From: an uncultured Aminicenantes bacterium
GTDB taxonomy: Bacteria > Acidobacteriota > Aminicenantia > UBA2199
Direction: 5' to 3'
NCBI GenBank assembly: GCA_965195285.1
Contig: CBDAFS010000031.1
Span: 96,001 to 160,000, forward strand
DNA: 64,000 bases
Shown here: piece after piece, positions 56,695 through 63,344 of the stretch
How the letters are laid out: each line of letters opens with the position of its first letter
How positions within the stretch are numbered: position 1 is the first letter of the stretch
Translations under genes and position numbers: made by a program
The notes under the pieces: model-generated
Seen by the model: the letters and a program-made list of their open reading frames with translations, nothing else
Told to the model about the DNA's origin: nothing
The model's database searches: none

Positions 56695-56805
56695 GGATCG
56701 GTATACATCTATGATCCGGAAACCGGTGAGTGGAAAGTGATCAATCCCTCCGGCTCCTTGGCCTACAATTACCTGTCCCGTGATGAGTGGGGCTGGCTGG
56801 ATTGA
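56695..56805 (+). pseudogene. Possible orphan 3' gene fragment at the island junction
   Basis: Start-less frame GSVYIYDPETGEWKVINPSGSLAYNYLSRDEWGWLD*; abrupt rise in GC. Confidence 0.35.
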
Positions 56806-57473
56806 AGCGTATGGTGTCTCTGGAATTCCGGGTTATTTTTAAGGATTTTGATGATGAATTCCACCCGTCTGTTTTTTTGTCTGCCTGCGGGATTGTCCGA
56901 TCCGTCCTCTTTCTGGTTGGGTGCAATCGGTTTGGTCTCACCGTATCCGAATATCCCGAACGAGTTCCCGGGTAGTGTCGAATTTTTGATGATCCAGTCT
57001 TTTACCGATTGTGCTCTTTTCAGCGATAATTTGTGGTTATAGGCTTCGCTTCCCCTGGAATCGGTATGCCCGCTGATGTTGATTCCAGTGCTTTTATAGG
57101 CATTGATTAATTTAACCACTTTTTTCAATTCGGCTTCGGCATCTTTTCTGATGTTCCACCGGTCAAAGTCAAACAACACATCCCCGGACATGGCGATCTT
57201 TATCTCGGTATCGGTTATGGTTGCATTCAGGTCTTTCAGATTTTTATTTATTTCCTTTTGATCAAAATTCAATTCGGAAACAACTCCGATTATGGCCACC
57301 ACTTTGGATGATAAGGTCAATGCCCCCCGGTCCGGTCCCAGTGTTTTTAAGGCCTTTATGGCTTTGGGGTGGGCATCCGGGGGTATCAAAGAATCCTGTT
57401 CTGCTTTTGTGTTGATGGTGATACAGATGATGAGAATAAAAATTAATCCGATCAACCGTAGTTTGTTTTCCAT
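56769..57473 (-). CDS. OmpA family peptidoglycan-binding protein
   Basis: DVLFDFD, GHTDSRGSEAYNHKLSLKRA, GYGETKP, KNRRVE. Confidence 0.92.
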   Translation of the reverse strand: MENKLRLIGLIFILIICITINTKAEQDSLIPPDAHPKAIKALKTLGPDRGALTLSSKVVAIIGVVSELNFDQKEINKNLKDLNATITDTEIKIAMSGDVLFDFDRWNIRKDAEAELKKVVKLINAYKSTGINISGHTDSRGSEAYNHKLSLKRAQSVKDWIIKNSTLPGNSFGIFGYGETKPIAPNQKEDGSDNPAGRQKNRRVEFIIKILKNNPEFQRHHTLQSSQPHSSRDR

Positions 57474-57487
57474 TTTATTTGTTATTT

Positions 57488-57943
57488 TTAAGTCAGTTTT
57501 ATTTCCTCAAAGGGTAAAAAACCGGGAATTGAAATGGATATTGATTCGGGGTTGTCAACGGGCAACGGAAACTTGGCCCAGATATTTTTTATTTTCTGTG
57601 GCTTGATCCAGGATTCGAACCGGCCGCCCGAGCCATCGGAACTGAAGGGGCCGCCAATGCATTTGGCTTCCGAATCTTTCAAGATATAGTATTTTTTTTG
57701 ATTGGCTTCATCGATGATATAAAAATCTTTAAAATGAAAATCCAGTTTTACACTTTCATTACCGTTGTTTCTAATCTTGATCTTGACAGTAATGATGTTG
57801 TTTTTAATCGTCAGTCCGGTGAGTTCGGCAACAATATCTTCATTATCGGTTGATTCCTGGGTCTGAATGATACCGGCGTTGAGAGAGCCGAATCCGAAAA
57901 CCAGAATAAACATCAGCCATAGGACTCCGTTTTTTAAATTCAT
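57488..57943 (-). CDS. Secreted Ig-like hypothetical protein paired with OmpA
   Basis: GGAGG RBS, signal peptide ending LNA, KKYYILKD...WAKFP; promoter TTGACA-N17-TATTAT at 58029-58001. Confidence 0.75.
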   Translation of the reverse strand: MNLKNGVLWLMFILVFGFGSLNAGIIQTQESTDNEDIVAELTGLTIKNNIITVKIKIRNNGNESVKLDFHFKDFYIIDEANQKKYYILKDSEAKCIGGPFSSDGSGGRFESWIKPQKIKNIWAKFPLPVDNPESISISIPGFLPFEEIKLT

Positions 57944-58129
57944 TTTACCTCCTCTATGGAAATTCATATTTGATAAATATTCAATCGGGTCATTATTCCC
58001 ATAATAAAGTATAGATCATTGCCTGTCAAGAGCAAGCGTGTGGGGCAGAAACCGTCCCCTGTTTTCAACTTAGGATTCACTGGTACTAATTACTGGCCCC
58101 CAAATCCCATTGAAATATTATGTCGTGGA

Positions 58130-59089
58130 TTAAAATTCTATGGTTTTTGATTTTTCGTGTGGTTGAGCGGCTTTTGAACCGGCTGTAGCTGCGGCAATCT
58201 TTCCGCCCCCGAAACTGTCCATGGGATAAATAATAATGGTTGAACTTTCTTCTTTGGAAATCTCCAGGAGTGCCTGAATCTGCCTCAACTCCATGGTTCC
58301 CTCCTGGGTTGACAGTATTTGACTGGCTTCTGAAAGTGAAGTGGCTACCTTTTTTTCAGCTTCTGCTTGAATTTGTTTTGCCTGGGAGCTGCGCTCTGCC
58401 CGGGCCATAACGGCTAATTCCTCAATAAGAGAAGGGGGAGCAAAAATATCGGTTATCCGCACTGCCCTGACATTCACACCATAATCCTTTGCCGCTCCAT
58501 CGATCTCACTCTTCAAACTGGAAGCAATAGTTTCGGTTTCGCTGAGCAGGGGTCTCAGGTCATTTTTACCGATAGTACTTTTTAATGCCTCCATAGAAGC
58601 CCATTCGGTGGTTTTCCAGTAATCTTTAACCCGGATGGCCGCTTTTTCCGAATCTTCAATTTCCATTTCCACGGCAGCCGTCACATCAATCGGGACATTA
58701 TCCTTGGTCAGTGTTTTGGTCGCTTTTACCTCATAGGTAGTGATTCGAATATCGATAATACGGGCAATGGAGTAGATAAATGGCGGTATAATAAAAAAGC
58801 CCGGGCCTCTGACACCCACAGATTTTCCCAGGCGAAGCAAAACCAGCCTCTCCCATTCGGGCAGGATATAAAACATGCGGGCAATGGTATTGGCCACCCA
58901 GAGGATAACCAGGGTTATGACCACACCAGCAAAAATCCGACCGGGAGAAGGTTCTTCTCCAATTTGCTTAAAGCTGGAAAAAATATTCCTGAAAATCGGC
59001 CAGGCAAATATGTACCATAAGGGGATAGCAATTCCCCAGCGAAAAACATTACGGATAAATGTTTGAACGGGATTACGTTTTTGTAACAT
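58130..59089 (-). CDS. SPFH/stomatin (slipin) family protein
   Basis: EWERLVLLRLG...GPG, IDIRI, LTKDNVPI, ARAER. Confidence 0.9.
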   Translation of the reverse strand: MLQKRNPVQTFIRNVFRWGIAIPLWYIFAWPIFRNIFSSFKQIGEEPSPGRIFAGVVITLVILWVANTIARMFYILPEWERLVLLRLGKSVGVRGPGFFIIPPFIYSIARIIDIRITTYEVKATKTLTKDNVPIDVTAAVEMEIEDSEKAAIRVKDYWKTTEWASMEALKSTIGKNDLRPLLSETETIASSLKSEIDGAAKDYGVNVRAVRITDIFAPPSLIEELAVMARAERSSQAKQIQAEAEKKVATSLSEASQILSTQEGTMELRQIQALLEISKEESSTIIIYPMDSFGGGKIAAATAGSKAAQPHEKSKTIEF

Positions 59090-59234: not shown

Positions 59235-59263
59235 TTGACAAAAAATTATATTTGGTGTAATTT
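59235..59263 (+). promoter_or_regulatory. Sigma-70 promoter of the riboswitch leader
   Basis: TTGACA-N17-TAATTT places the TSS near 59270, at the 5' end of the RNA motif. Confidence 0.6.
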
Positions 59264-59270
59264 TAAAATT

Positions 59271-59370
59271 CATACTCCGAGCCTTGTTTGCTAACGCATC
59301 CCTGCCAGGCAACTGGGCCGATAGGGCATAAAGGGAAACCTTTATCGCCTGCCGTGTTTGCAAAGGAGGA
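59271..59370 (+). ncRNA. Moco (molybdenum/tungsten cofactor) riboswitch-like motif
   Basis: 5' ACUCCGAGC; GNRA stems CCAG-GCAA-CUGG and AUAAAGG-GAAA-CCUUUAU inside AGGG...GCCU; 3' GCCUGCCGUGUUUGCAAAGGAG versus canonical GCCUCCCGUAUUUGGAAAGG(A/U)G; P1 CUCC/GGAG overlaps the SD. Confidence 0.8.
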
Positions 59371-59374
59371 TTTT

Positions 59375-61309
59375 ATGATTAAGAGAGTTATTTTTTTATT
59401 TTTTTTCTCATTTTTTTCATCCTTATTCCTTTTTCCGGATTCAAAAGATGATGACAAACAACCGGTATCACACCCCTCTTTTACCGAAGAGATTGTGGTT
59501 GAAGGTGAGATTGTATCTAAAACCGCAACGGTATCTACTATAACCGCAAAGGAAATTGAAGAAAAAGGTGTGAAAAATGTTGCTGAAGCTTTGGAATTGA
59601 TACCCGGGGGTTTTGTTCGGGTCGGTGGAAGCGGAGAGGCTTATATCCGCATCCGCGGTTTTCGTCAAAGGGAAATTGCCCTGTTAATTGATGGTATACT
59701 CATTAGTTCGCCTTATAATGGTCAATTGGATTTGAGCAGTATCCCGGTCAATACCATTGACCGTATTGAGTTGGTAAGAGGCGCATCTTCACTGATGTAT
59801 GGGCCCAATACCATGGGTGGGGTAATTAACATTATCACCAAGAAAAGCAGTGGTGCTACCGAGTTTAGTATGACCAATGAATACGGGAGCGGAGATACCG
59901 GCAAGGTGGGGGCTTATCTTCAAGGTGGAATCGGTTCCCTTCGTTATATGGTTGCGGGTAGCTACTTTAATCAGAATGAATATCTGCTTTCAAGGAGTTA
60001 TGAAGAACAAGAAAATCAGGGAAGTGGAGCCAGAGCCAATAGTGACCGGAAAATTTGGAATTCTTCGGTTAGTCTGGGCTGGGATATGGGTAAGAAGAGT
60101 CGGGCAACCTTTCATTTCAGTCACATTGACCAGGTTCGGGGCCTGCCGCATCATGAGAGTGACCCCAGGGCAAAATTTCGACGATATACTGATTGGCAGC
60201 AGGGAATGGTCGATTTTATTTTTGATACCCATTTTGGCAACAGTTCATTAAAGGCAAAAGTTTATTACGAATATTTAAATCACACCCTGGATAACTATGA
60301 TGATATGAGCTATTCAACTCAAGACAATCAGAAATCGACAACAGAAAGCATGAAAAATTATGCCATGGGAGGTGATCTGTTTTACCGCTATCATTTTAAC
60401 CAACGGCTGCTCTTTAAATCGGCACTTCGCTTCCGCTATGACCATAACAAATCCCGCCCCGATTTCTCCGATCCCTGGGGAAGTCATGCATATAATATAT
60501 TTTCAATCCCTCTGGAAATAGAATGGAGAGGAACAGATATACTCCTCATTTCAGGAGGTGCGTCTTTTGATCTGATGAGTTTTGATAAAGGCCAAGATTT
60601 AGGATCCCGCACCACAAATAGCTTTAATCCTCAACTTGCCCTCATGGTATTTCCCATCAAAACCTTGAGTTTTAAAGCCACGGCCTCCCACAAGACCCGT
60701 TTTCCAACAATCAGGGAACTGTTCTCGCTGGATTCGGGAAATCCTGATTTAGAACCCATGACTGCAGATATCTTTGAATTGGGGGCTGAATGGAGAATTA
60801 ACCCGAAATGGTCAGTTTCACTTTTGGGTTTTTACAATAACATCAATGATCTGATTGGTCGCTCCAGCAAAGACGATCCCTATGATAATATTGACAAAGC
60901 CGTTTTCAAGGGATTTGAAGCCGGCATGGAATGGGATAACCAAAATTGGATTATACTCAAACTTTTTTATACCTATCTTGAGGCTATTGATAAATCACCA
61001 ACAAGTTCAGGGTATATTGAACATAGACCGCGGCATAAGATCGATACTTCCATAGCGATTAAGTTGCCGTCTCAGTTCTACATAAGCGCAGATATCGGTT
61101 ATGTGTCATCACAGCTCTATTATAGTGATGAAGAAGAAGAACATCTGGATCCTTTTACCCTTATTGATTTGTGCCTGACTAAAAAAGTAGGGCGCTTCAT
61201 GGAGTTTTTTGTGACGATTCGTAATCTATTCGATGTAATTTATTATGAAAGTGAAGGATATCCCAGAGAAGGGAGAATAATCCTTGGTGGCTTTCGTTTA
61301 ACCCTATAA
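59375..61309 (+). CDS. TonB-dependent receptor
   Basis: Signal peptide, TonB box EEIVV, plug IRIRGF...LLIDG...IDRIELVRGASSLMYG..MGGVINIIT, GNPDLEP, RNLFD...GR...LTL; true ATG is 59375. Confidence 0.93.
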   Translation: MIKRVIFLFFFSFFSSLFLFPDSKDDDKQPVSHPSFTEEIVVEGEIVSKTATVSTITAKEIEEKGVKNVAEALELIPGGFVRVGGSGEAYIRIRGFRQREIALLIDGILISSPYNGQLDLSSIPVNTIDRIELVRGASSLMYGPNTMGGVINIITKKSSGATEFSMTNEYGSGDTGKVGAYLQGGIGSLRYMVAGSYFNQNEYLLSRSYEEQENQGSGARANSDRKIWNSSVSLGWDMGKKSRATFHFSHIDQVRGLPHHESDPRAKFRRYTDWQQGMVDFIFDTHFGNSSLKAKVYYEYLNHTLDNYDDMSYSTQDNQKSTTESMKNYAMGGDLFYRYHFNQRLLFKSALRFRYDHNKSRPDFSDPWGSHAYNIFSIPLEIEWRGTDILLISGGASFDLMSFDKGQDLGSRTTNSFNPQLALMVFPIKTLSFKATASHKTRFPTIRELFSLDSGNPDLEPMTADIFELGAEWRINPKWSVSLLGFYNNINDLIGRSSKDDPYDNIDKAVFKGFEAGMEWDNQNWIILKLFYTYLEAIDKSPTSSGYIEHRPRHKIDTSIAIKLPSQFYISADIGYVSSQLYYSDEEEEHLDPFTLIDLCLTKKVGRFMEFFVTIRNLFDVIYYESEGYPREGRIILGGFRLTL

Positions 61310-61321
61310 GGAGAAATTCAT

Positions 61322-62590
61322 ATGTCATTAAAAATTTTGGTTATGTTGTCTTTGTTATTGTTTCAAAACATTTCTGCAGCGGAAAAGGAATTATTGGTAC
61401 AAAACGCCCGCTTTTATTCAGCCAATACAGTTGATATTAACCGGGATGGTATAGTTGAAGTTATTGCTGCCGGTCAATTGAATCATGGGAATGAAAAAAA
61501 CCATTCGGCCTATATTGCTGTTTTCAAAAGAGATAACGGTTCATTTAAAAAAGTGTCCGAGTTATCCTTCCGCATCTCTCATAAAGGGGCAAATATTTCT
61601 ACAAGAATCCGCAACATCCAGATCATTCCGGAGAAAAGCACGGGGAGTTTATTTTTTGTTACCTCCGGTCGGGCAGGCGAGGATGAAGGCGGAATCGGTT
61701 TTATCCAGTATGGTAAACTTCAACAAGATCAGATTTCCATGGACGGGTATCATAAATTTGTTGATACCCAGGCAAAATATACCCATGGTTATCCCCTGGC
61801 TATTGGAGACCTGAACGGTGACCGGAAGCCTGAAATTGTTTATGGAGGGTTTGTGGGAACTGAAAAAGGAGATCGAGCCGATATTCATGTCTTTAGATTC
61901 GAAAAGGGTAAACTTAAAGAAGATAAAATTGCTTTTTCTTCTCTCAAAATTCCCCTGCGGGTAAATGCCATCGTGATTGGTGATCTGGATGGTGACAGTA
62001 AAAATGATATTGTTATCGCAGGCAGAACTTTAAAACCAAACGGCAAGGAGTATGCTTCCTTTGCCTGGGATTCTCAGGGTAAAACCTACCATCATATATT
62101 CAATGATGGGTTTCCCAGTCGATTAAGAACTCTGCTGATAATTGATATTGATCAGGATGGAAAAAATGAATTGGTTACCGGAGGAAGACAAGAATTCGGT
62201 AAAATCTGGGTGGCGGACCTTCAAATCTGGAATATCAATGATAATGATGCTAACTTATCCGATCGTTTCTTCTGGAGCTCTGGTCATCAAATAAGATTGC
62301 GGGCAATCTCGCCAATAAAAAACCAGCCCAACCATTTCAGGGTCGCCGGAAGAGTTGAGTATAGAAGAAAAGATGGAAGTGTTGGATGGTCCGGTTTTAT
62401 CAGGTCTTTTGGAAAAGAGAATGGCTCTTTTCAGCCGGTTTCTGGTTTAGAGTTGTTTGATTTTGGCCATGAAACTCGTATCCGGGATCTTCATCTGGCC
62501 GAAAGTGGTGATACGGTTCTTGCCGGTTTTGGTAAAACCAAAGCAGGACAAAACTTCGGATTCATCCGTTTCATAACTGCCAACAAGTAA
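61322..62590 (+). CDS. Secreted FG-GAP/VCBS-repeat beta-propeller protein
   Basis: Signal peptide; DINRDG, GDLNGDRKPEIV, GDLDGDSKNDIV, DIDQDGKNELV Ca-loop repeats; 12 nt after the receptor stop with AGGAG RBS. Confidence 0.85.
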   Translation: MSLKILVMLSLLLFQNISAAEKELLVQNARFYSANTVDINRDGIVEVIAAGQLNHGNEKNHSAYIAVFKRDNGSFKKVSELSFRISHKGANISTRIRNIQIIPEKSTGSLFFVTSGRAGEDEGGIGFIQYGKLQQDQISMDGYHKFVDTQAKYTHGYPLAIGDLNGDRKPEIVYGGFVGTEKGDRADIHVFRFEKGKLKEDKIAFSSLKIPLRVNAIVIGDLDGDSKNDIVIAGRTLKPNGKEYASFAWDSQGKTYHHIFNDGFPSRLRTLLIIDIDQDGKNELVTGGRQEFGKIWVADLQIWNINDNDANLSDRFFWSSGHQIRLRAISPIKNQPNHFRVAGRVEYRRKDGSVGWSGFIRSFGKENGSFQPVSGLELFDFGHETRIRDLHLAESGDTVLAGFGKTKAGQNFGFIRFITANK

Positions 62591-62600
62591 AACCTGATTT

Positions 62601-63344
62601 TTATTCTTTGTTTTTGACATAAATAAGTTTAAATCTTCCCTTTTGACTCTCCCGGGTTTCGATGTCGAATTTACCGATGGAAGCAATCAGGGGGGTTAAC
62701 TTTTCAAAACCATAATTTCTGGAATCAAAATTGGGTTGTTTCTTCTGCAAAAGGCTTCCCACATCTCCTAAAAAAGCCCAGCTATCATCATCAGCCAGGT
62801 CAGATATGGTTGATGAAATTAACTGGATGATTTCAGGGGTAATTTCTTCGACCGTACTTTTCCGGGAAGGTTTATTCTTATTGATACTGGATTCACTTCT
62901 CTTTGATCGGTTCTTGAGGATTTCAATGTAGATAAATTTATCACAGGCCACTATAAACGGGTTGGGAGTCTTTTTTTCTCCGATTCCAAACACCTTCATC
63001 CCGGCTTCCCGCAACCGGGTGGCCAGCCGGGTAAAATCGCTATCGCTGGATACCAGGCAAAATCCGTTGACCTGACCGGAATACAAAATATCCATGGCAT
63101 CAATAATCATGGCAGAGTCAGTGGCATTTTTACCGGAAGTATATGCATATTGCTGGATCGGGATGATGGCATTTTTTAAAAGGACTTTTTTCCATTTGGC
63201 CAGAGTGGGTTTGGTCCAGTCTCCAAAGATCCTTTTGATAGTGGGATTTCCATATTTGGCAATTTCCTCCATCATTTCTTTTACATAATCAGAGGCGATA
63301 TTGTCCCCGTCGATCAATACGGCAAATTTTATTTCCTTTTCCAT
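62601..63344 (-). CDS. NYN domain protein with C-terminal LOTUS (OST-HTH) domain
   Basis: AVLIDGDN, GKNATDSAMIIDAMD, LVSSDSDF, FDSRNYGFEKL. Confidence 0.92.
   Translation of the reverse strand: MEKEIKFAVLIDGDNIASDYVKEMMEEIAKYGNPTIKRIFGDWTKPTLAKWKKVLLKNAIIPIQQYAYTSGKNATDSAMIIDAMDILYSGQVNGFCLVSSDSDFTRLATRLREAGMKVFGIGEKKTPNPFIVACDKFIYIEILKNRSKRSESSINKNKPSRKSTVEEITPEIIQLISSTISDLADDDSWAFLGDVGSLLQKKQPNFDSRNYGFEKLTPLIASIGKFDIETRESQKGRFKLIYVKNKE

Follow-up and report, generated by a model that had tools for sequence, protein, structure and literature searches.

We analysed a stretch of 64,000 nucleotides from an uncultured Aminicenantes bacterium (GenBank assembly GCA_965195285.1, contig CBDAFS010000031.1, positions 96,001 to 160,000 of the forward strand). 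We call this stretch the window, and all coordinates below are counted from its first letter. Towards its end a riboswitch for the molybdenum or tungsten cofactor (Moco or Tuco), a gene for a TonB-dependent receptor and a gene for an exported beta-propeller with FG-GAP repeats follow one another on the forward strand. The propeller carries a conserved set of arginines at one end of its blades. A preliminary description of this DNA had noticed many of these arginines and had proposed that they form a cationic pocket for an oxyanion or a cofactor. The observation itself is confirmed; its interpretation is partly supported.

The propeller and its arginines

The propeller gene and its features are listed here, with the number of sequences that share a residue in an alignment of 37 propeller homologues, down to 22% identity. 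Positions within a blade are counted from the first Asp of its DxDxDG loop.

61322-62590, +: gene of the FG-GAP seven-bladed beta-propeller, 422 amino acids (Pfam, AlphaFold2 model, fold matches)
61322-61381, +: Sec-type signal peptide MSLKILVMLSLLLFQNISAA, read from the sequence
61406-61423, +: opening of blade 1, ARFYSA, residues 29-34; at -8 R30 (37/37), at -6 Y32 (35/37); strand 29-37
61601-61618, +: opening of blade 2, TRIRNI, residues 94-99; at -8 R95 (35/37), at -6 R97 (36/37); strand 94-103
61784-61801, +: opening of blade 3, HGYPLA, residues 155-160; at -8 H155 (33/37), then G156, at -6 Y157 (36/37)
61955-61972, +: opening of blade 4, LRVNAI, residues 212-217; at -8 R213 (37/37), at -6 N215 (37/37)
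62117-62134, +: opening of blade 5, SRLRTL, residues 266-271; at -8 R267 (36/37), at -6 R269 (37/37)
62291-62308, +: opening of blade 6, IRLRAI, residues 324-329; at -8 R325 (34/37), at -6 R327 (36/37)
62474-62491, +: opening of blade 7, TRIRDL, residues 385-390; at -8 R386 (37/37), at -6 R388 (37/37)
61469-62530, +: third ring, the end of strand 2 (P of GAP) in all blades, from alignment columns and AlphaFold2 strand ends, with the seven codon triplets that follow
61469-61477, +: blade 1, AGQ52 (Q 34/37)
61664-61672, +: blade 2, SGR117 (R 26/37, K 10/37)
61844-61852, +: blade 3, GGF177 (F 37/37)
62018-62026, +: blade 4, AGR235 (R 37/37)
62180-62188, +: blade 5, GGR289 (R 36/37)
62345-62353, +: blade 6, AGR344 (R 35/37)
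62522-62530, +: blade 7, AGF403 (F 36/37)
61433-62170, +: Ca2+-loop motifs of the DxDxDG type between strands 1 and 2 of blades 1, 3, 4 and 5, read from the sequence, as follows
61433-61459, +: blade 1, DINRDGIVE
61808-61834, +: blade 3, DLNGDRKPE
61982-62008, +: blade 4, DLDGDSKND
62144-62170, +: blade 5, DIDQDGKNE

Pfam matches the protein above cut-off with FG-GAP_3 (54.4 bits, cut-off 26.9) and FG-GAP (53.1 bits, cut-off 22.1). An AlphaFold2 (AF2) model made from an alignment of 23 sequences has seven blades of four strands each (predicted local distance difference test, pLDDT, 91.6; predicted template modelling score, pTM, 0.90), which bears out the FG-GAP propeller of the preliminary description. 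The innermost strands of the model start at residues 29, 94, 154, 213, 266, 323 and 384, and a leftover N-terminal strand (24-27) presumably closes blade 7. With its DxDxDG loops, for which metal binding is predicted, the protein belongs to the FG-GAP/VCBS superfamily; the acidic loop columns are at least 80% conserved in blades 3-5. It is not of the strict integrin type. The cage glycine is present only in blade 3 (G156), and the GAP proline is absent from all blades, its position being taken in blades 1 to 7 by Q, R, F, R, R, R and F. Two other types of protein were rejected: a ModA/WtpA/TupA-type oxyanion binder, as the propeller has no SBP_bac_11 or SBP_bac_1 Pfam match, and a sulfite-oxidase/PruR-type (SUOX) fold, as the model is an all-beta propeller.

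On inspection of the sequence the signal peptide has neither a lipobox cysteine nor a twin arginine, and its cleavage site is predicted at MSLKILVMLSLLLFQNISAA/EKE. In the AF2 model the N-terminus forms a helix (residues 2-17), followed by a low-confidence stretch (15-20). A lipoprotein is ruled out by the missing lipobox, and the N-termini in the 37-sequence alignment are without the lipobox cysteine in most homologues as well. Judged by its signal peptide, the propeller is most likely exported to the periplasm.

The top structural match of the model is the C-terminal propeller of CylK (Z 39.0, root-mean-square deviation 3.2 over 344 residues), and Foldseek agrees on it (E 7.8e-12). Integrin alpha propellers (Z 30-32 over 347-371 residues) and YncE of E. 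coli (Z 31.8, root-mean-square deviation 2.8, 309 of 321 residues) are also high in the list, with WD40 proteins next. Fold comparison found no functional relative of the propeller. A search of Protein Data Bank (PDB) sequences with the family profile gave weak, repeat-level matches, six at E of at most 1 and YncE not among them; the strongest is CRTAC1 (E 3.7e-5), which matches over a single repeat pair, and integrin alpha-6 stands at 0.15. A search of the ESM Atlas with the propeller returned generic FG-GAP/VCBS clusters only.

All seven segments that the preliminary description had quoted are in place. Each opens strand 1 of its blade, and they recur every 54-65 residues. The two positions that had been picked out (-8 and -6) are right; the third ring, at the end of strand 2, had been missed. 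Thirteen of the propeller's 26 arginines are 92-100% conserved in the 37 homologues, with Lys in at most one sequence per column, R117 in the third ring excepted, and the 12 arginines outside the motifs are conserved to 73% or less. The conservation that the earlier pocket called for is therefore there, and it is confined to one family.

This confinement can be put in numbers. Blade 3 is the sole blade with an integrin-type phi-G-phi cage, and its H155-G156-Y157 aligns to the F-G-Y of integrin alpha-6. Hence position -8 corresponds to the F of "FG" and position -6 to the next cage aromatic, in the terms by which the pertinent part of Chouhan et al. 2011 (PMC3192720) defines the FG-GAP and cage motifs (cage phi-phi-G-phi ... 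P). Among 115 generic FG-GAP proteins that match the family profile, 65 of 1151 repeats have Arg at -8, and eight of the 1151 have it at -6 as well; in the propeller family it stands at -8 in 80 of 100 repeats. The motif is family-specific because generic FG-GAP repeats rarely have Arg at those positions. As far as aligned sequences can tell, the arginine set is a defining character of a small propeller family and not of FG-GAP repeats generally.

By the strands of the AF2 model, the three positions fall where strand 1 begins and where strand 2 ends. They lie at the blade end opposite the strand 1-2 hairpins with the DxDxDG loops. FG-GAP/cage and Ca2+ loops are found at opposite blade ends in integrin-type propellers too, according to the section of PMC3192720 that deals with them. 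The pattern is asymmetric. Blades 4/5, 5/6 and 6/7 give R, R, R each, and the side of blades 1-3 contributes Y32, Q52, H155, Y157, F177 and N215, which together with F403 are the conserved partners in the set that are not arginines. Within a propeller blade, strand 1 is the innermost one, so that residues at matching places at its start encircle the hub on a single face. The cage aromatics of integrin alphaV-beta3 ring the top of the central cavity and hold an arginine of the beta subunit. If the analogy is right, Arg in place of aromatics at the cage positions would invert the polarity of that cavity. In the family alignment 15 columns are at least 80% basic and 15 are at least 80% acidic. 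Nine of the 15 acidic columns belong to the Ca2+ loops at the other blade end, leaving about +9 at the hub end, and such bookkeeping on sequence columns supports a hub end that is predicted to be cationic. We infer that the conserved arginines and their partners form an asymmetric, strongly cationic cup there.

The riboswitch operon and its relatives

The elements upstream of the propeller gene are these.

59235-59263, +: candidate promoter, TTGACA (59235-59240), a 17-nt spacer and a weak -10-like TAATTT (59258-59263), a sequence reading
59263-59382, +: Moco/Tuco riboswitch aptamer (RF01055) without the P3 stem (64.5 bits, gathering score 36, E 3.2e-13)
59375-61309, +: gene of TBDR1, a BtuB-like TonB-dependent receptor of 644 amino acids (Plug 91.5 bits, TonB_dep_Rec_b-barrel 110.7 bits)
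61310-61314, +: Shine-Dalgarno sequence GGAGA of the propeller gene, directly after the receptor TAA and 7 nt before the ATG

RF01055 is the sole Rfam match in the window, and its alignment shows the deletion of P3. The candidate promoter, directly 5' of the riboswitch, was unlisted by the consensus scan since its -10 matches 3/6. The conserved 3' part of the riboswitch, AAAGGAGG, is at the same time the Shine-Dalgarno sequence of the receptor, and the last bases of the aptamer include the receptor ATG. An aptamer that holds both Shine-Dalgarno sequence and start codon is the usual translational OFF arrangement. The true start of TBDR1 is this ATG at 59375, 7 nt past the GGAGGA of the conserved 3' strand; the TTG at 59288 given in the list of open reading frames is an artefact, lying inside the aptamer. 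As the aptamer is part of the same transcription unit and overlaps the Shine-Dalgarno sequence and start, the operon counts as a member of the Moco-riboswitch regulon, with the regulation predicted. TBDR1 is BtuB-like, yet it scores far under every NCBIfam equivalog cut-off.

Receptor stop and propeller ATG are 12 nt apart. Since the flanking genes are divergent upstream and convergent downstream, the transcription unit consists of riboswitch, receptor and propeller. The convergent gene (window 62601-63344, -), for a protein with NYN and OST-HTH/LOTUS domains, ends 11 nt from the propeller stop, and no intrinsic-terminator-like site was found between the two. Upstream on the opposite strand (window 56769-59089, -) are genes for an SPFH/Band-7 protein, a small signal-peptide protein with a weak DUF4352 match and an OmpA-family protein, which have no evident operon link. 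A prediction of the complex between receptor residues 45-644 and propeller residues 22-420, using both alignments, gave 0.00 in two runs against a mark of 0.32, and is uninformative either way.

The propeller family is small. A search of 5.8 billion clustered proteins gave 22 clear orthologues; clustering at 50% leaves about 27 full-length representatives, and 57 matches have an E of at most 1e-30. Every source name met for the family is "hypothetical protein". A metagenome scan for the propeller gave 13 loci, two of them true orthologues. Genome contigs searched with the propeller alignment yielded at least 57 loci, and those listed are partial matches of the generic FG-GAP kind (21-38% identity); the same search with the single propeller protein found no orthologous loci. 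Where DNA is at hand, the propeller gene is immediately preceded by a receptor orthologue in 4/4 loci, a count that stops short of the more divergent half of the family (P0017-P0022, P0062-P0080). These loci are the window, L005 (73% identity), L006 (43%) and G658/L104 (about 41%), and the genes beyond the receptor-propeller pair differ between them. The riboswitch is also present in L005 (68.1 bits), and L006 is cut inside the receptor. The single riboswitch of genome G658 is on a different contig, ahead of the 5' part of a receptor fragment (60% identity) that continues past the end of that contig. In addition, six more pairs of propeller and receptor homologues agree in the length of their longest contig in the two protein searches, which suggests, short of proof, that each pair sits on one contig. 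The receptor-propeller unit is probably an accessory module that moves laterally. The preliminary description had also proposed an exported, receptor-linked protein, and this is sustained by the Sec signal, by co-transcription with the receptor behind the Moco riboswitch and by the linkage in other loci.

The genome has three RF01055 matches, each without P3, as is that of L005. According to the part of Regulski et al. 2008 (PMC2408646) on this variant, the P3-less class is tied to tungsten-cofactor metabolism and was proposed to sense Tuco. One of the other two riboswitches (L001, G000:C55:57271-63467) stands before genes for an SBP_bac_11 binding protein (109 bits), a permease and an ATPase; MoeA-, MoaA- and MoaC-like genes and two small ones come next in the operon. 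The other (L003, G000:C24:26058-29129) stands before a paralogous receptor, TBDR2, which is 27% identical to TBDR1, and a 338-amino-acid (338-aa) protein with a signal peptide. The genome also contains four AOR-family genes, four molybdopterin-oxidoreductase genes and MoaC. Hence it uses W and/or Mo and makes its own cofactor. The regulon fits scarcity of Mo/W.

The 338-aa protein deserves attention, as its gene has the same place behind a receptor as the propeller gene. It has no Pfam match, and its family counts 2260 proteins at E of at most 1e-5, all labelled "hypothetical". In its model (pLDDT 90.1) two sulfite-oxidase/PruR (pterin-binding) folds stand in tandem. Each of the ten best structural matches is a Moco domain of the sulfite-oxidase family or a PruR protein (Z 8.8-12.1, the next one 6.2), and Foldseek confirms these matches. 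A molybdenum enzyme was considered and rejected, for the signal is Sec and not Tat and no cysteine is conserved at 85% or more. For the same reasons the protein would reach the periplasm without cofactor. The riboswitch-TBDR2-338-aa unit of L003 is a candidate for taking up a molecule of the pterin or molybdopterin type.

What fills this slot elsewhere is also informative. The riboswitch is present in 41/61 sampled genomes of the class. Of 29 class riboswitch loci, 12 precede TBDR2 orthologues, 12 the ABC binding protein and five neither. TBDR1 orthologues were met in four other genomes (47-49% identity), each of them behind a Moco riboswitch. In two of the four (L107, L108) the next gene codes for a protein distantly related to the 338-aa one (hhalign 98.7%, E 1.8e-16), the two relatives being 59% identical to each other; the remaining two have no downstream partner. 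A pterin-binding fold, or no partner at all, in the same slot suggests that the propeller handles a ligand. One partnerless receptor (L112, G657:C16:47000-55400) is back to back with an operon for a FecCD permease, an ABC ATPase and a Peripla_BP_2 protein, which also codes for a PD40 beta-propeller protein and for a protein of 248 amino acids that has no Pfam match. This arrangement hints, no more, at a bulky chelate or cofactor as cargo.

What the propeller may do

Our favoured suggestion, which we make tentatively and rate somewhat short of probable, is that the propeller handles a ligand in cofactor-repressed uptake across the outer membrane, with the arginine set as the best candidate for its binding site. 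The riboswitch, the TonB-dependent receptor and the exported propeller as accessory protein would then make up a two-gene uptake operon. If the Mo/W pterin cofactor is plentiful, translation of the receptor would be off, and by coupling so would the operon; therefore, the products would be made when the cofactor is scarce. The receptor may carry an anionic Mo- or W-bearing cargo over the outer membrane and hand it over to the propeller. There the cationic cup, nearly all Arg in blades 4-7 and polar or aromatic in blades 1-3, would hold it. Made together with a receptor under such control, the propeller probably helps to capture a scarce, negatively charged Mo or W compound.

Several suggestions can be made regarding the cargo. 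In order of preference they are a phosphate-bearing pterin cofactor or precursor, a complex of a metallophore with an oxometalate, and a free, thio- or poly-oxometalate. The set has 13-15 conserved basic residues, far above the need of one tetrahedral oxyanion. That surplus, together with the pterin-fold proteins at the matching place in sister operons, makes a larger anionic cargo more likely relative to bare molybdate or tungstate. Either of these bare anions is possible as a ligand, and the support for molybdate alone does not exceed that for a pterin-phosphate cofactor or for a complex with a metallophore.

A bolder version, which we regard as improbable, is that the operon serves the TonB-dependent salvage of W/Mo pyranopterin cofactor (or of cPMP or MPT) shed by other cells in anoxic sediment. 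The intact, phosphate-bearing cofactor would be imported by the receptor. The half-ring of arginines in blades 4-7 would clamp its phosphates and the oxo/thio-metal centre, and the His/Tyr/Phe side in blades 1-3 would stack on the pterin. In the sister operons the tandem PruR/sulfite-oxidase-fold protein would do the same job. If this is true, it would be the first dedicated bacterial uptake system for Moco/Tuco, and the propeller would be a new kind of cofactor-binding propeller.

A number of points weigh against a propeller that binds Mo or W cargo at its hub. In itself, the arginine set has no tie to Mo or W chemistry. The preliminary description had offered the motif as independent support for its riboswitch-based reading, and this part has to be given up because the operon is the sole source of the link to Mo/W. 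Taken alone, the number of RxR motifs (four) is unremarkable for the composition, being reached by 589 of 10000 shuffles; the pattern is non-random because the arginines are conserved and in register, not because of that count. From the strand register in the model, the arginines at -8 and -6 should face one side of the sheet and the GGR arginine of the same blade the other, and such a register would fit packing between blades as well as a cup. The family is rare, with the propeller in 1/401 genomes of a sample of the phylum and 2/339 genomes of the class, and three further genomes from its own genus (G653-G655, 70-91% complete) gave no receptor-propeller unit. The propeller is dispensable for the receptor clade, given that two of the four other orthologues have no partner and two a different one. 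Finally, as the cell makes its own cofactor, salvage is not obligatory.

The strongest rival explanation is structural packing, which we consider unlikely all the same. Here a network of hydrogen bonds between Arg, Asp, Glu and backbone would replace the cage and proline packing, possibly with a buried structural anion, and the real function (scaffold, enzyme or other periplasmic partner) would lie on another surface of the propeller. The same positions make a rigid intra- and inter-blade unit in integrin-type propellers, in the passages of PMC3192720 that describe the motif. Six conserved acids at the hub end (D121, D184, D187, E243, E291 and E384) could pair with some of the arginines, although about nine conserved positive charges there have no conserved acid to match. 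The strict intolerance of Lys for Arg is typical of buried bidentate hydrogen-bond networks too, and each blade has its own fixed residue type, as a packing solution predicts. On the other hand, generic FG-GAP propellers fold without Arg at these positions, and the fold that fills the same operon slot elsewhere is a ligand-binding one.

It is also conceivable, at a still lower level of likelihood, that the propeller is a passenger: it would be co-transcribed with the receptor and act elsewhere, as a periplasmic enzyme or envelope protein, as YncE may do beside the receptor PqqU. A yncE mutant was like its parent in uptake of pyrroloquinoline quinone (PQQ), in the relevant part of a preprint (bioRxiv 10.1101/2022.06.07.495086), and this too counts against a role in cargo handling. 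The propeller is absent from most genomes that hold the receptor clade. Its best structural match is the propeller of an enzyme, CylK, but the identity is only 11-13%. Against a passenger, adjacency to the receptor is kept in all four loci at 41-73% identity while the genes on the far side differ, and the 12-nt spacing suggests tight coupling. Least of all do we expect a surface lid that sits on the extracellular loops of the receptor as a very high-affinity ligand trap: TBDR1 is indeed BtuB-like, and the propeller lipoprotein BtuG forms stable complexes with BtuB receptors (in the portions of PMC10404256 and PMC6143338 on these complexes), but in our propeller and most of its homologues the Sec signal is a plain one that lacks the lipobox cysteine, and there is no evident route to the surface.

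We return to the ligand-handling propeller for what it would mean. Little is understood of how trace amounts of Mo and W pass the outer membrane, and the operon offers a way to study it. Two different TonB-dependent receptors of this genome are under the predicted control of a riboswitch for the finished cofactor, and each is accompanied by an exported accessory protein. This two-receptor regulon is small, and its cargo is open to experimental search; the lysine-intolerant arginine set provides a precise target for mutations. Binding of a Mo/W species or of the pterin cofactor at the hub would make the propeller a novel type of Mo/W-binding protein. Such cargo would also point to piracy of cofactors or metallophores in anaerobic communities that depend on tungsten enzymes.

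Comparison with known systems

Associations of this kind have been noticed before. TonB-type channels near molybdopterin-responsive riboswitches and molybdopterin-binding proteins are remarked upon for Pelobacter carbinolicus in one part of Aklujkar et al. 2012 (PMC3543383); the corresponding portion of the Caldithrix paper makes no such remark. Literature searches found no paper that joins "Moco riboswitch" with "TonB-dependent", and no search was aimed at the propeller family. What we describe is an FG-GAP propeller with a re-made hub, recruited as an accessory of a TonB-dependent receptor, from a family that is uncharacterised and rare.

With the integrin-alpha FG-GAP/VCBS propellers (PF01839, PF13517) it shares seven four-stranded blades and DxDxDG loops between strands 1 and 2. 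It differs from them in that the cage glycine is lost and the aromatics are replaced by Arg in 6/7 blades, and in being a small, single-domain, exported bacterial protein encoded in a transport operon. CylK (PDB 7ron, 7fh6) is a two-domain enzyme of Friedel-Crafts alkylation, whereas the protein in the window, at the low identity given above, has no N-terminal domain of that sort.

Two systems for the uptake of cofactors are similar in arrangement. YncE is likewise a Sec-exported seven-bladed propeller encoded beside a small TonB-dependent receptor (PqqU/YncD) for an anionic cofactor, PQQ. It has no detectable sequence relation to our protein, its gene is divergent from the receptor gene, and it is dispensable for PQQ uptake, in the same part of the preprint cited above. 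BtuG of Bacteroides is a propeller accessory that is encoded with a BtuB-type receptor and captures a cofactor. In the portions of the BtuG papers already cited it is a surface lipoprotein with a corrinoid ligand, whereas the propeller in the window is without a lipobox and its ligand is presumed to be a Mo/W species.

A parallel in operon context is that of the 338-aa proteins (G000:C24, L107, L108). They too have a Sec signal, and they too occupy the slot directly after a receptor, paralogous or orthologous to TBDR1, behind a P3-less Moco riboswitch. Their fold is wholly different, and they come from a large family, in contrast to the small one of the propeller.

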